64,000 bases of DNA, from assembly GCA_002688315.1 (NCBI GenBank), contig NZCN01000002.1, forward strand, positions 38,979 to 102,978. The letters run 5' to 3'. Every line of letters starts with the position of its first letter. The stretch's first letter is position 1. Below, in pieces: positions 52,497 to 62,562 of this stretch. A program made the position numbers and the translations under genes. The DNA is from Candidatus Woesearchaeota archaeon. Lineage in GTDB: Archaea; Nanobdellota; Nanobdellia; Woesearchaeales; UBA10216. A model generated the notes under the pieces. The model saw only the letters and a program-made list of their open reading frames with translations, ran no database searches and was not told the DNA's origin.

Positions 52497-55400
52497 TTAC
52501 TTTATTTCCGCAATTTTAACTTTGAAATAAAGCGTTGTGTTGAAAAATACGTGGCTTGGATCAGTATATCCTTGCTCTGGCTCAACAGTTATTATTTTTT
52601 CTTCATTTAGCTTTGTTCCTAAGATTCCTTTTTCAAATCCAGGTATTACTGAGTTTAATCCTGTAGTGAATGCCATTGAATCATGCGGGTATTCGTCAAT
52701 GCCAGTTTCCTTAGTTACTCCTTTACCTCTGAAATCATTTATTGAGCTGTCAAACACTGTTCCATCCTCTAAATATCCTATATAGTTAACCATGACTTCA
52801 TCGCCTAAACTTACTTCGGTTTTTTCTTCTACTGGTTTAAGTTCGTTCATTATGTTTTGCTGCTTTCCTTCCCAGTCAACTTGCCATACCCATATGTTGG
52901 TTCCTGTAAAACTCTGCTGTCTTGTTAAAAGTTTGAAATATTTTAAGCTGTGTCCTTGCATGTAAAACATTTTTGCAAACATTCCATCAACTAATTCAGG
53001 GCTTCCTACAATCCTGTTATAGTTTCCTCCTGATGGAATGAGCAGTATTCCTAAATTTTGAGGCACTGTATTGTTATCAAACGTTTTCTTAATAACTTCT
53101 CCTTCAGCAGTAGGGTAGCTTATTGAAATTGGGTGCTGGTTTCCTTGTGGTGTTGGATACCATGCATTGTAGTCTGCAGGGTCAACAATTAATCCGTCTC
53201 CGCATTTTATTAGTTCATCAACAATGCTGCATCCATGCACTCCTCCTGAAAAACCGTTCCATGGTCCTATCCATGCATCTGCAGCTCCGTCATTTGAAAT
53301 TCCCTGCATTTGTTCATAAATGCTGTTTGCTTCTTCCTCGCTCATTTCATGTGTTTCTTTCATGTATTGCACTGCTTCTTCTCTTGGCTTTCCTCCAACT
53401 GCTTTCCATATGTCTGCTTTGGTGTAGTCCCAGGCTCCAAAGTGTCCCCATACTCCGGATTTGCCTATCATGTCTTCAGAAGCAATTACAAATGATTCAG
53501 GCGGGTTGCAATGTGTTAATTCCAAAATTTCATTTGCTTCCTGCTCACTCAATTCTTCTTCCAAAAGAACTTGTTTTGCTCCATCTCTGTCAAGCATTAT
53601 TATCTTTTTGGTAAGCTTAACAGCATAAACATTATCTTTTCCTGATTTTTTCTCTAATTCATGAGTTCCAAAATGCGCTCCGCAGTTAAGCATTCTTAAT
53701 ATGCCTATTGCTTCTCGCTCGTCGCTTGTGCTGAAAAATCTGCCTACCCAATGCGCTTGAGGAAATGCTTGAGTTGTTCCGTCAAAAGTTACAGCTCTGT
53801 CAGCCAAGGATTTGAAATGGTGTCCAAAGTCCCACCACGAGGTTATTATTGCGTCTTCTTTTGAGTTTTCTTTTATGCTGTTTAATGAGTTAAACCATGC
53901 GTCGTTTATTAGAGGAACATCATTGTTTACTACGTTTCGCGCAGCGTTAACTACGTCGCTGTTAAAAGTTGGTCCTGGAAACATCATGAATAACATGGCG
54001 AAGACAATAGTCATTACAATCAATTTGTTAAATTTGAATTGCTTGCTTGTCCATGCTCCCACATATCCTGTGATGAGGCCAAAGACAATGCCAAATGCTA
54101 TGCTGAATGCAGGCACTAAAAGAAGAACAAATCTAATTCCTTTTGTTACAGCATACAAAGTTGCTATGAACCATATTGTAAGCACAACCGCATAAAACAA
54201 ATCTCTTACTATTTTTTCATTGTCTCTTTCCTTTTTGTAGGCTTCAAATGCCGCTCTTGCTATTATGAGGATTATTCCAAAAACTGCAATGTAAAAAAGT
54301 GAGCTTCCAATCTGGTTTATTGCTTGCTGCGCTGTTCCTTCGTTAAGTTCTGCTACTGTTCTCAGAACGTTTGGAGCTGCACTTCCAACCACAGGTGTTT
54401 TTAGCGTCCTAAAGCCTATGGATGCTACAGGAGTTAATAAGAAAGTGCTCAACCCAGATGTTATGGTCATAGTAATGCCAGTAACTGCAAAGTACGTTGC
54501 TGTAATAGTGATTATTTTTCTGGAAACACTATTCTTAAGACTGTTTAACCCGTTTTTTATCACTGTGCCTTTTCCAGTAAAGGCTTGGTAAAGCACAAAC
54601 AATCCGAAAGTTGCTGCTGCTGAAGCTAAAATAAAGTCAAATATCCACCACCAGCCTCCCCACGTAAGGCTGTACAAAGTTGTTGCAATTCCTGAAAGAG
54701 CTGCAAACACGATTTTCAGCATTATTCTTTTTGCAGAAACTGCTTCAATGAAAAGCCACAGCACAAGCACTGCAAAAAATATGACTATTGCATCTGAATC
54801 CCCATGCCCGAACTGGGTTCTGTTGATTAAAGCTGCATGCACTCCCACCATTGTTGCTGCAAAAAATGCAGCTACGTTTCCAGCTATTCTTCTTGTTAGC
54901 AAGAACACAATTAATGTGGAAAGCGCTGATATGAAAACAGGATAAAACATTAATGCTCTTTGCAGCTCAAGGCCTGGCTTGAATATTTTTGCAACGTTGT
55001 AAAACAAAACTATGGATTGTGGATAAAAAGTATCTTTAGGAGCAATCATTCTTCCTACAGGCGCAAATTGGTGGTTATCCCATTGCATGCCATCTCTGAT
55101 TTCATCTCCTACGTGCCCTTTCTCAACTATGTTTCTGGAATATCTCCACCAGTAATAAGGGTCAATGTCAGGCATGTAGTTTTTTCCAGTTTCATCTTGG
55201 TAGAATGTTTTGAATTGCTGCGAGGCAATTTCAATCTGTTGCTGCAGGTTTATTGTTTGCCCTGCAAACTGGCTTGTTTTGAAAGTGTATGTTCCTGCCC
55301 TCTTTGCTTTATTAAGTTCTTCCGCAGCAAGCTGCTGCCTGTTGCTGTCCGGCAGATTCGGATATGTTTGGCTTACAAAACTGGCAATGTCATTGTTTAT

Positions 55401-55913
55401 TGTTTGATCAATGCTGTTTCTTGCCCAATTATCTGTAAAACCTAACTCTCCTGATTGCATTCTTAAGTTGAATCCAATTCCAACGCTAACAACTATTCCT
55501 AGAATCAAAAACAAAGTCATGTGATATTTCTTCAGAAAATTCATAACAGAACTGATATCGAAGTCTTCATCACCTTTGCTTTCTTTAGCTCCGCTTTTTG
55601 CTCCCTTAAAAATTCCTTTTATGCCGGCAATTGCTTTTCCAACATCTATTTCATCTTTGCTGTCATCGCTTTTACTGGTTTCGTGTTCAATTTTTTTATC
55701 ATTTTCTTTAACATCTTCCGCTTTATGTTCGCTTTTAGTTTCATTTTTGCTATCAACAGTAGTTGCAGAAATAGGTTCTTTTCCTTCAGAACTTTTTTTT
55801 CTCTTAAACAAGCCTGTTATCTTTCCAAAGTCAATCTCAACATCTTCATCTTTTTTATCTTCAACGACTTTTATGTTATCACCATAATCTTTCTTATCCT
55901 GAGATTCAGCCAT
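52497..55913 (-). CDS. aglB: Oligosaccharyltransferase AglB/STT3 with an N-terminal K/E/D-rich extension and a C-terminal FKBP-type PPIase domain fused in frame
   Basis: 1138-aa continuous ORF. ~13 TM helices, then 'ITSWWDFGHHF' (the WWDYG-type OST catalytic motif). The last ~110 aa, 'GDEVMVNYIGYLEDGTVFDSS...GLNSVIPGFEKGILG', align with the standalone FKBP at 13877..14305. The first ~135 aa are Lys/Glu/Asp-rich. Confidence 0.8.
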   Translation of the reverse strand: MAESQDKKDYGDNIKVVEDKKDEDVEIDFGKITGLFKRKKSSEGKEPISATTVDSKNETKSEHKAEDVKENDKKIEHETSKSDDSKDEIDVGKAIAGIKGIFKGAKSGAKESKGDEDFDISSVMNFLKKYHMTLFLILGIVVSVGIGFNLRMQSGELGFTDNWARNSIDQTINNDIASFVSQTYPNLPDSNRQQLAAEELNKAKRAGTYTFKTSQFAGQTINLQQQIEIASQQFKTFYQDETGKNYMPDIDPYYWWRYSRNIVEKGHVGDEIRDGMQWDNHQFAPVGRMIAPKDTFYPQSIVLFYNVAKIFKPGLELQRALMFYPVFISALSTLIVFLLTRRIAGNVAAFFAATMVGVHAALINRTQFGHGDSDAIVIFFAVLVLWLFIEAVSAKRIMLKIVFAALSGIATTLYSLTWGGWWWIFDFILASAAATFGLFVLYQAFTGKGTVIKNGLNSLKNSVSRKIITITATYFAVTGITMTITSGLSTFLLTPVASIGFRTLKTPVVGSAAPNVLRTVAELNEGTAQQAINQIGSSLFYIAVFGIILIIARAAFEAYKKERDNEKIVRDLFYAVVLTIWFIATLYAVTKGIRFVLLLVPAFSIAFGIVFGLITGYVGAWTSKQFKFNKLIVMTIVFAMLFMMFPGPTFNSDVVNAARNVVNNDVPLINDAWFNSLNSIKENSKEDAIITSWWDFGHHFKSLADRAVTFDGTTQAFPQAHWVGRFFSTSDEREAIGILRMLNCGAHFGTHELEKKSGKDNVYAVKLTKKIIMLDRDGAKQVLLEEELSEQEANEILELTHCNPPESFVIASEDMIGKSGVWGHFGAWDYTKADIWKAVGGKPREEAVQYMKETHEMSEEEANSIYEQMQGISNDGAADAWIGPWNGFSGGVHGCSIVDELIKCGDGLIVDPADYNAWYPTPQGNQHPISISYPTAEGEVIKKTFDNNTVPQNLGILLIPSGGNYNRIVGSPELVDGMFAKMFYMQGHSLKYFKLLTRQQSFTGTNIWVWQVDWEGKQQNIMNELKPVEEKTEVSLGDEVMVNYIGYLEDGTVFDSSINDFRGKGVTKETGIDEYPHDSMAFTTGLNSVIPGFEKGILGTKLNEEKIITVEPEQGYTDPSHVFFNTTLYFKVKIAEIK

Positions 55914-62071: not shown

Positions 62072-62143
62072 AACTTTTTTTTGTTTAATTGTTTTTTTCT
62101 TATTTTTCGTTTTGTCATCTTATTTTTACATTGTAGAATTATA

Positions 62144-62252
62144 CGCCGGGGACGGGACTTTCACCCGTGAGATGATTTGAACCCGCGTGAGAGCGGGTAC
62201 TCTCATCTGGATCTTAAGTCCAGCGCTTTAAGCCGAACTCAGCCACCCCGGC
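62144..62252 (-). tRNA. tRNA-Leu (anticodon UAA) with an ~18-nt insertion in the T-arm (putative non-canonical intron)
   Basis: Minus strand reads GCCGGGG-TG-GCTG-AGTTCGGCTTA-AAGC-G-CTGGA-CTTAAGA-TCCAG-(long variable arm GAGAG..CTCTC)-GCGGG-TTCAAAT-[CATCTCACGGGTGAAAGT]-CCCGT-CCCCGGC-G. 7-bp acceptor stem, perfect anticodon stem, canonical GGTTCAAAT T-loop. TATA-like 'atatataaa' ~20-28 nt upstream. Confidence 0.6.
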
Positions 62253-62562
62253 AATGTTTGGAAAAAATTTATATATTGGTCCTAATACACATTAATCTGA
62301 GCGGGTGCTTTCAATTGGAGTATTCAGCCACTCCGTTTTTCTTTATTTTTCATTTTCTTGTAAAGAACTAGTGGTTTAAATACCCTATCCCTGTATGTCC
62401 AATGCTAATGGTCAAAAAGGCTTAAACCTTTATTTTTGAAGACTTCAGGGCTTGAAAGCTTATTGCGCAAATCTTCCGGATTGTCCAGTGGTTTATTCGG
62501 AAACTTTTACCATAAAGTTTAAATAAAAGAATCTATTTTAAAGTAGTAACTGGGGATGTTAC

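Follow-up and report, generated by a model that had tools for sequence, protein, structure and literature searches.

How a transfer RNA can be made from a gene whose T-loop and 3' T-stem strand are separated by surplus nucleotides is the question raised by a tRNA-Leu(UAA) gene on the minus strand of contig NZCN01000002.1 from Candidatus Woesearchaeota archaeon, within a stretch of 64,000 nt that is referred to as the window throughout. The original prediction, made from the letters of this stretch alone, placed 18 extra nt between the T-loop and the 3' T-stem strand and proposed a non-canonical intron at about position 59/60. The sequence reads exactly so, and the proposal has gained support from the bulge-helix-bulge (BHB) geometry of the precursor as well as from 24 other distinct genes that share the intron site and display compensatory changes. 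As far as can be judged from sequence, the locus is very probably a functional tRNA-Leu(UAA) gene of marine Woesearchaeota (DPANN), interrupted by an 18-nt archaeal BHB intron at 59/60.

With precursor numbering counted from the 5' end (position 1 = 62252), the minus strand from 62252 to 62144 is laid out as GCCGGGG-UG-GCUGAGUUCGGCUUAAAGC-G-CUGGA-CUUAAGA-UCCAG-AUGAGAGUACCCGCUCUCAC-GCGGG-UUCAAAU-(CAUCUCACGGGUGAAAGU)-CCCGU-CCCCGGC-G, where parentheses enclose the insert (coordinates of all parts are collected in Table 1). Every tRNA part named beforehand was found, namely the acceptor stem, the D-arm with GG in its loop, the anticodon arm, the long variable arm, GCGGG and TTCAAAT, and the T-loop UUCAAAU fits the conserved bases U54 U55 C56 purine57 A58. 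Removal of the 18 nt had been predicted to leave a standard cloverleaf, and after their deletion in silico ARAGORN indeed returns a fully paired class II structure with a 7-bp acceptor stem, a long variable arm and a 5-bp T-stem. The behavior of tRNA predictors towards the sequence with its insert, which had been proposed as a check, turned out to be mixed: ARAGORN calls a tRNA-Leu(taa) at 62161-62253, albeit a distorted one with GCGGG mispaired to CAUCU and mismatches in the acceptor stem, while the Rfam tRNA model yields 26.6 bits, below its gathering score of 29, with the same wrong 3' end. Both mispaired 3' ends are due to the presence of the insert.

The insert itself is real and no assembly artefact, since the identical 109 nt occur in six of six independent assemblies (Tara Oceans ENA assemblies, two UBA metagenome-assembled genomes (MAGs) and one further NCBI assembly); these loci were found through the 440-aa protein encoded beside the tRNA, which is present on 14 contigs, of which six loci were fetched. 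Because the dinucleotide TC both precedes and ends the insert, its boundaries are ambiguous by up to 2 nt, and the registers 78-95, 79-96 and 80-97 yield one and the same mature RNA. Hence, the insert as first delimited (CATCTCACGGGTGAAAGT, 62157-62174, positions 79-96) is equivalent in its product to 62158-62175, the register 78-95 that the predicted BHB geometry selects.

In this register, a central helix H of 4 bp, checked base by base, joins U72 U73 C74 A75 of the T-loop to U90 G91 A92 A93 of the insert and is flanked by two 3-nt bulges, A76 A77 U78 and A94 G95 U96, while the T-stem (67-71/97-101) provides the outer helix h. In BHB motifs, each strand is cut two nucleotides 3' of the central helix. 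By this rule, cleavage is predicted after A77 and G95, which would release intron 78-95 (UCAUCUCACGGGUGAAAG) and create the exon 1-exon 2 junction GGGUUCAAA^UCCCGU, or ...GCGGGUUCAAA^UCCCGUCCCCGGCG (caret, junction or cut). Thus, two 3-nt bulges surround a 4-bp helix, and excision restores a canonical tRNA in silico. The inner helix h' consists of the single pair C79-G89 (C at 62174, G at 62164), while the strict hBHBh' motif comprises an h' of at least 2 bp. Since h' amounts to one C-G pair only, the motif represents the relaxed hBH/BHL form, of which the outer helix, the 3' bulge, the central helix and the weakly closed 5' site are all present (for the motif description see PMC3239211). The BHB motif expected at the junctions was therefore recovered by manual folding, though in its relaxed form and with a one-pair h'. 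Cuts at 60/61 or 61/62 were rejected by inspection, as no 4-bp helix forms there. A group I or group II self-splicing intron was likewise rejected, given an insert of 18 nt devoid of Rfam hits as opposed to a ribozyme core of hundreds of nucleotides.

A broader distribution of this intron emerged from two scans. In the first, 185,579 species-representative genomes were searched for tRNA-Leu(UAA) genes that agree with the window gene in anticodon loop, T-loop and 3' T-stem strand, whatever the content of the gap. Among the 52 matching loci, 46 lack an insert (gap of 0 or 1 nt) and belong to Bathyarchaeia, Thermoplasmata, Thermococcus, Methanocaldococcus, Micrarchaeota, Nanoarchaeia, Poseidoniales and others, whereas six carry an insert of 14-25 nt at exactly the site of the window gene. 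These six comprise four Woesearchaeota MAGs, one unclassified archaeon and one entry labelled Methanosarcinales, and all of them possess the anticodon stem CUGGA/UCCAG, which is found in none of the 46 insert-less loci. A second scan, directed at metagenomes and anchored on this stem without constraint on the T-stem, yielded 85 loci. After parsing, 25 distinct intron-bearing genes remained (the window gene and 24 others from related MAGs and metagenomes), whose inserts measure 13-25 nt. A shared gene neighbourhood was not detected by tblastn of the window open reading frames (ORFs) against all fetched loci, which are denoted by L numbers hereafter.

In all 25 genes, the end of the insert restores U60. 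Helix H forms four of four Watson-Crick pairs in 13 genes and three of four in the other 12, with one G-U among the three in four of the latter. Moreover, introns of 20-25 nt feature a genuine 4-bp h' of varying sequence (GCUA/UAGC, UGUC/GGCA, GUUC/GAAC) and hence the textbook hBHBh' motif. On an alignment anchored at the splice sites, the BHB pairs are formed in 84.3% of cells (13 pairs), compared with 40-53% after a shift of the partners by 1-3 columns. The corresponding covariation score is 0.236 against 0.115 +/- 0.016 after shuffling and is reached in 0 of 500 shuffles, a count that is not a probability because the sequences are related. The first h' pair is present in 21 of 24 genes and occurs as five pair types, and all four h' pairs change on both sides.

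The clade is further marked by its discriminator, which is G in the window gene and in nearly all intron-bearing genes but A in the insert-less archaeal tRNA-Leu(UAA) genes; the usual discriminator of archaeal tRNA-Leu is A73, from which the window gene deviates. The base preceding position 1 is T or A in the intron-bearing loci, and CCA is encoded in none of them.

An intron at the same site was also encountered in another tRNA gene. In the fetched DNA (888 kb), a custom scan revealed a tRNA-Val(CAC) in which 22 nt are inserted at 59/60, GUGGG-UUCGAA^U-GCCCUUAAAAAGGAC-CGAA-AA^U-CCCGC, on the marine Tara contig CEPX01128019.1 (L068; minus strand, from about position 327 of the reverse complement), which harbors an intron-bearing tRNA-Leu gene as well. 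Its central helix UUCG/CGAA covaries with its own T-loop, while ARAGORN made no call for tRNA-Val(CAC) on this contig. T-loop introns in these organisms are therefore not restricted to one gene.

For transcription, cleavage and ligation, we infer the following course and the enzymes involved. The tRNA-Leu gene would be transcribed from its own TATA-box promoter, a role for which the TATA-like box at 62266-62279 is the probable candidate; relatives feature a similar ATATATAAAT- or TTATTTAAA-type box at the same place. The precursor would then adopt a splicing-competent fold with the T-stem GCGGG/CCCGU as outer helix, U54-A57 paired to UGAA as central helix, and AA^U and AG^U as splice sites. 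The archaeal tRNA splicing endonuclease EndA would cut each strand two nucleotides 3' of the central helix, and an RtcB-type ligase would subsequently join the exons, thereby restoring the T-loop UUCAAAU. CCA would be added post-transcriptionally, as none is encoded.

Several points weigh against this interpretation. The BHB alignment was made by hand, with the first five intron nucleotides set as fixed columns and the last ten right-justified, and the sequences compared are related. Both scans required TTCAAAT, so that the T-loop and the first intron nucleotide (U) were fixed by the search; hence, the invariance of the T-loop is not independent evidence. Pfam scans of 40 ORFs of the 64-kb window identified neither an EndA nor an RtcB gene, and an EndA of strict specificity is not expected to cut the window precursor, whose inner helix is a single pair. 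Finally, the predicted energy of the cloverleaf with the BHB motif lies 9.9 kcal/mol above that of an alternative fold in the window precursor, and 0.5-17 kcal/mol above it across precursors, in a nearest-neighbour folding model that ignores tertiary contacts and proteins. As to the endonuclease, EndAs of the strict-specificity alpha4 and alpha'2 types need the full motif, while (alpha-beta)2 and epsilon2 enzymes go along with relaxed motifs and disrupted tRNA genes (PMC3239211, PMC5829648). In addition, DPANN alpha4 EndAs with an L3 loop are apparently associated with relaxed motifs and disrupted tRNA genes, according to a survey that took in a Woesearchaeota MAG (PMC5829648).

The alternative fold arises from the intron itself, since nearly all nucleotides of the window intron are complementary to its own tRNA and fall into three segments: the strand of a helix termed X, a mimic of the 5' T-stem strand, and UGAA. 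The mimic reads ACGGG where the 3' T-stem strand is CCCGU (ACGG in L031 and L059), GAGG in four genes with CCCUC, and GCGGG in a single gene whose strand is CCUGU. An unfitted MAFFT alignment shows the helix between mimic and 3' T-stem strand paired in 90.4% of cases compared with 32-64% for slid partners, and its covariation score amounts to 0.231 against 0.110 +/- 0.025, with switches from A-U to G-C and from C-G to A-U that are probably attributable to a single clade. The mimic of L107, GAGG, is not identical to the 5' T-stem strand GGGGG although both pair with CCCUC, which argues for complementarity as opposed to copying.

At the 5' end of the intron, the first 5-9 nt pair with the end of the 3' strand of the anticodon stem, the junction and the first nucleotides of the variable stem. 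This helix X varies as GUUGA/UCAAC (exon/intron) in most short introns, GUAGA/UCUAC in L085, GUAGG/UCUAU in L048, AGAUGA/UCAUCU in the window gene, AGUUAGCG/UGCUAACU in L061, UGAUA/UAUCA in L134 and UGACA/UGUCA in L072. The MAFFT register at the intron 5' end is scrambled, and a permutation test was used here: the cognate score of 5.62 compares with 4.55 +/- 0.20 for permuted intron-exon assignments and is reached in 0 of 20,000 permutations. This signal persists after collapsing the set to 18 distinct classes, while a control exon segment has no effect. For the window precursor, the predicted minimum free energy (MFE) structure combines helix X with the mimic hairpin; the MFE structures of all 22 complete precursors pair the 3' T-stem strand with the mimic, and 16 of them also contain helix X. 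This predicted fold and the BHB motif are mutually exclusive, and the mature variable arm and T-arm are excluded by it as well.

Two other uses of these segments in splicing were rejected. The ACGGG/CCCGU hairpin cannot act as outer BHB helix, which is topologically impossible when nested, as the mimic immediately precedes the central-helix strand on its 5' side. An inner helix supplied by the exon through helix X, in a pseudoknotted BHB motif, is possible topologically, but introns of 14 nt would leave a 3-nt linker over a 5-bp helix, and the mimic would stay unexplained. A C/D-box guide within the intron was also discarded, given its insufficient length and the lack of conservation of box-like strings. 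The mimic seems dispensable for splicing at 59/60, because the tRNA-Val intron has none.

That the alternative fold is a selected, precursor-specific structure is the reading preferred here, at about even odds. A folding switch of this kind might bar the unspliced precursor from aminoacylation and translation, or place end-processing ahead of splicing. There is a tentative case for the intron being such a selected switch or else the footprint of an intron gain, in which local duplication of exon sequence created the BHB motif. In the limited literature covered, no description of exon-mimicking archaeal tRNA introns was found, which is no proof of novelty.

This latter origin is the rival that survives best, and it is compatible with the intron reading: the insert would have begun when the preceding exon segment was duplicated locally in tandem, and would later have served as a BHB intron, with its complementarity a mere relic. 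Such a history is plausible, if less likely than not. It can draw on the colinearity of the intron with the preceding 18-20 nt, as illustrated by the window gene (exon CUCUCAC-GCGGG-UUCAAAU, intron CAUCUCAC-GGG-UGAAAGU) and by L061 (exon GCUA-C-GAGGG-U-UCAAA, intron GCUA-ACUA-GAGG-UAGC-UGAAA). A passive relic, however, would not follow later changes of the exon, whereas both segments exhibit compensatory switches. Furthermore, helix X involves exon nt 46-50, offset from the nt 49-53 that are paired by the 3' strand of the variable arm; in L013, the 5' part of the intron, UCAAC, is no copy of the variable-arm 3' strand GUAUC; the divergence of mimic and T-stem strand in L107 points in the same direction; and the tRNA-Val gene carries an intron at the same site without any mimic.

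Considerably less probable is a pseudogene, that is, a tRNA gene disabled by 18 inserted nt that stay in the RNA. The merely distorted call by standard predictors and the lack of a cloverleaf in the predicted MFE structure would fit this notion, yet 25 distinct genes carry an insert at this site and have conserved exons, with compensatory changes in the T-stem and BHB helices. The agreement of the six assemblies and the conserved TATA box upstream argue against decay as well, and UUA is a major leucine codon that accounts for 22.5% of the Leu codons in the window ORFs, wherefore a tRNA-Leu(UAA) gene is very likely needed.

Still less credence is given to the absence of an intron altogether, with the RNA functioning unspliced through ACGGG/CCCGU as T-arm next to an oversized variable region. 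This intron-less T-stem had been named in advance as a fold that could overturn the proposal, and the hairpin does exist, covaries and is thermodynamically preferred in 22 of 22 complete precursors. It is nevertheless no functional T-arm, because its loop, UGAAAGU here and AAAAU, AAACU, UAAAAAU or 12-14 nt in relatives (5-14 nt overall), lacks U54-U55-C56 and a fixed length. By contrast, GCGGG-UUCAAAU represents the canonical 5' half of a T-arm, the supposed variable region would span 38 nt, and deletion of 18 nt produces a perfect standard tRNA. An assembly error, mobile-element scar or attachment (att) site is effectively refuted, for although tRNA genes are common integration targets (PMC4090602) and a partial tRNA-Leu-like copy lies upstream, that copy extends only from D-arm to variable loop, neither the tRNA 3' part nor the insert recurs elsewhere in the window, six assemblies agree, and 18 nt are far too short for an element and are vertically conserved across the clade.

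The BHB intron favoured here has a documented counterpart. In ARMAN-2 (Candidatus Micrarchaeum acidiphilum), the pre-tRNA-Cys(GCA) is interrupted at 59/60 by 13 nt in a relaxed hBH motif, an intron that is cleaved in vitro by the epsilon2 EndA of this organism, while tRNA-Pro(GGG) carries a strict 59/60 intron (PMC3239211). Hence, the window intron is not a new category, and the suggestion that an intron at 59/60 would be notable in itself has to be withdrawn, as both position and relaxed motif were known (PMC3239211). The tRNA-Cys intron and the window intron share the short length, the site, the relaxed hBH (BHL) motif, the T-stem as outer helix and a DPANN host; they differ in that the present case concerns Leu instead of Cys and Woesearchaeota instead of Micrarchaeota, with the EndA type, epsilon2, known only for ARMAN-2. 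No exon-mimicking segments or alternative fold are reported for tRNA-Cys, the comparison being one by description. The known strict-motif T-loop intron at 59/60 resembles the long-intron relatives L061, L100, L113 and L064, but that case involves two adjacent introns, whereas the window intron represents the relaxed form.

Compared with the canonical archaeal intron at 37/38, the window intron likewise displays a 4-bp exon-intron helix, 3-nt bulges that hold the splice sites, and presumably the same enzymology, yet it resides in the T-loop instead of the anticodon loop, employs the T-stem instead of the anticodon stem as outer helix, and escapes the standard predictors that detect 37/38 introns. 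The tRNA-Trp intron of Haloferax volcanii, which comprises about 100 nt with C/D boxes, pairs with its own exons and directs 2'-O-methylation (PMC4090602), is likewise an archaeal tRNA intron complementary to its own exons, and there the complementarity serves a purpose other than building the BHB motif. The present introns of 13-25 nt are too short for C/D boxes, and their exon pairings compete with the BHB motif. In Thermoproteales, near-identical introns in unrelated tRNA genes suggest movement, according to the account of Fujishima et al. (2010) given in PMC4090602. The present introns differ in forming one family inherited within a single tRNA gene, the tRNA-Val intron at 59/60 being unrelated in sequence. 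What is new here is the lineage, the tRNA and a well-populated, inherited intron family that spans strict and relaxed forms.

Some relatives deviate further. L064 and L092 (JGI metagenome contigs Ga0209542_10087433 and C687J35174_10082463) possess a 20-nt intron at 59/60 and a second insertion right after the 3' T-stem strand, CCCGT^AGTTGCCTGCGAGTTGCTCGCAGGCTCGCAACATTTA^CCTGGC, with a 9-bp hairpin, which is probably a second intron near 65/66. In the metagenome contigs L141 and L107, an insertion of about 40 nt, TCGAATGCGAGTGAGCGAAG(C/T)GAACTCGCTCACAAGTCAC, follows the acceptor sequence GCCAG and is near-identical in otherwise different tRNA-Leu genes. The 3' flank of L141 ends with the reverse complement of CAGTCGAATGCGAGTGAGC, resulting in a long flanking helix, while the normal 3' acceptor strand is absent. 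Two G's required for a full acceptor stem are not apparent, and the two genes may contain several introns or have been rearranged in some other way. The intron-bearing tRNA-Leu of L041 (CAZLGX010000012.1, labelled uncultured Methanosarcinales archaeon) is near-identical to that of the Woesearchaeota MAGs L013 and L098 and features the same upstream architecture, and the contig is probably mis-binned or mislabelled.

As regards this upstream region, almost every intron-bearing tRNA-Leu gene is preceded by a conserved CACTGGACAT-type box, a TATA-like box, an A-rich stretch and then a partial tRNA-Leu-like copy, in this order. The layout recurs in L007, L013, L022, L031, L041, L059, L061, L064, L072, L073, L082, L100, L107, L113, L117, L125, L128, L139, L141 and L142. 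The partial copy consists of a D-arm-like hairpin, a degenerate anticodon arm, and the 5' strand and loop of the variable arm, without acceptor stem and T-arm. It agrees with the real gene of its own locus at 9-12 of 12 positions and stops where the 3' strand of the variable arm would begin, and in 19 of 22 loci its variable-like segment starts 54-62 nt before the gene. RNAalifold gave no consensus fold for the copy. It could be part of the same system as the exon-complementary segments of the intron; a function as trans-acting or leader "sponge" for the intron 5' segment was, however, rejected by inspection, since the own exon matches better where the two differ (L013, L031). Moreover, a 21-nt A-rich direct repeat (62093-62113 and 62336-62356; minus strand AAAACGAAAAATAAGAAAAAA and AAAATGAAAAATAAAGAAAAA; 86% identical, spacing 243 nt) brackets the partial copy and the tRNA gene, but it is of low complexity and may be due to chance.

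Table 1. Parts of the intron-bearing tRNA-Leu(UAA) gene and of its upstream region, in window coordinates
Feature	Position	Strand	Remarks
Complete tRNA-Leu(UAA) gene with intron	62144..62252	minus	109 nt; discriminator G at 62144; no CCA encoded
Exon 1	62176..62252	minus	tRNA positions 1-59
Acceptor 5' strand	62246-62252	minus	GCCGGGG
D region	62225-62243	minus	contains GG
Anticodon arm	62207-62223	minus	stem CTGGA/TCCAG, loop CTTAAGA, anticodon TAA 62214-62216
Helix X, exon strand	62203..62208	minus	AGAUGA; 2 nt of anticodon-stem 3' end, 2 nt of junction, first 2 nt of variable stem
Variable arm	62187-62206	minus	20 nt
T-stem 5' strand	62182-62186	minus	GCGGG
T-loop part in exon 1	62176-62181	minus	UUCAAA
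Central BHB helix H, exon strand	62178..62181	minus	UUCA, T-loop positions 54-57; pairs with UGAA 62160-62163
Bulge B1	62175..62177	minus	A58, A59 and intron U1; predicted 5' cut between 62176 and 62175
Predicted intron	62158..62175	minus	18 nt, TCATCTCACGGGTGAAAG; between tRNA positions 59 and 60
Helix X, intron strand	62170..62175	minus	UCAUCU, intron nt 1-6; complementary to AGAUGA 62203-62208
Intron mimic	62164..62168	minus	ACGGG; complementary to CCCGT 62152-62156; forms alternative hairpin
Central BHB helix H, intron strand	62160..62163	minus	UGAA
Bulge B2	62157..62159	minus	intron A, G and U60; predicted 3' cut between 62158 and 62157
Exon 2	62144..62157	minus	U60 (62157), CCCGT (62152-62156), CCCCGGC (62145-62151), discriminator G (62144)
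TATA-like box	62266..62279	minus	CCAATATATAAATT; about 14-27 nt upstream of the tRNA gene; probable promoter
Partial tRNA-Leu-like copy	62297-62334	minus	
Upstream A-rich stretch	62335-62352	minus	
Upstream TATA-like box	62372-62385	minus	
Upstream box	62395-62404	minus	CATTGGACAT; upstream of the window tRNA-Leu gene

The archaeal origin of the DNA, for which the intron had been cited in support, is borne out by three window proteins that are deposited as Candidatus Woesearchaeota archaeon (MAG15649.1, MAG15653.1; exact look-up). The window has a G+C content of 34-40%, and by the Pfam scans of 40 ORFs its positions 1-57000 are nearly all occupied by a glycosylation and cell-surface island; informational genes were absent among these 40 ORFs. 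The island encodes at least 16 glycosyltransferases (GT2, GT4), four PMT_2-family proteins, three or more sugar epimerases or dehydratases, a DegT aminotransferase, a carbamoyltransferase, an MBOAT protein, flippase-type proteins and several SGNH/AlgX-like proteins. An ORF of 1138 aa (52497-55913) contains WWDFGHH, which we take to resemble the WWDYG motif of AglB/STT3.

For genome annotation, the tRNA-Leu(UAA) intron has the consequence that ARAGORN and Rfam report genes of the window type with a wrong 3' end or miss them, and tRNA-Leu(UAA) would therefore be mis-annotated or counted as missing in Woesearchaeota MAGs, in line with a tRNA annotation problem already noted for DPANN genomes (PMC5829648). 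The family of 25 genes constitutes a clean test set for the detection of T-loop introns. In addition, it extends the documented 59/60 introns from Micrarchaeota to marine and groundwater Woesearchaeota, and the coexistence of strict and relaxed BHB versions of one inherited intron bears on the extent to which EndA specificity has been relaxed in this lineage. Should the segments complementary to the exons prove functional, they would illustrate how an archaeal tRNA intron can influence the folding of its precursor, and would supply data on how such introns arise.

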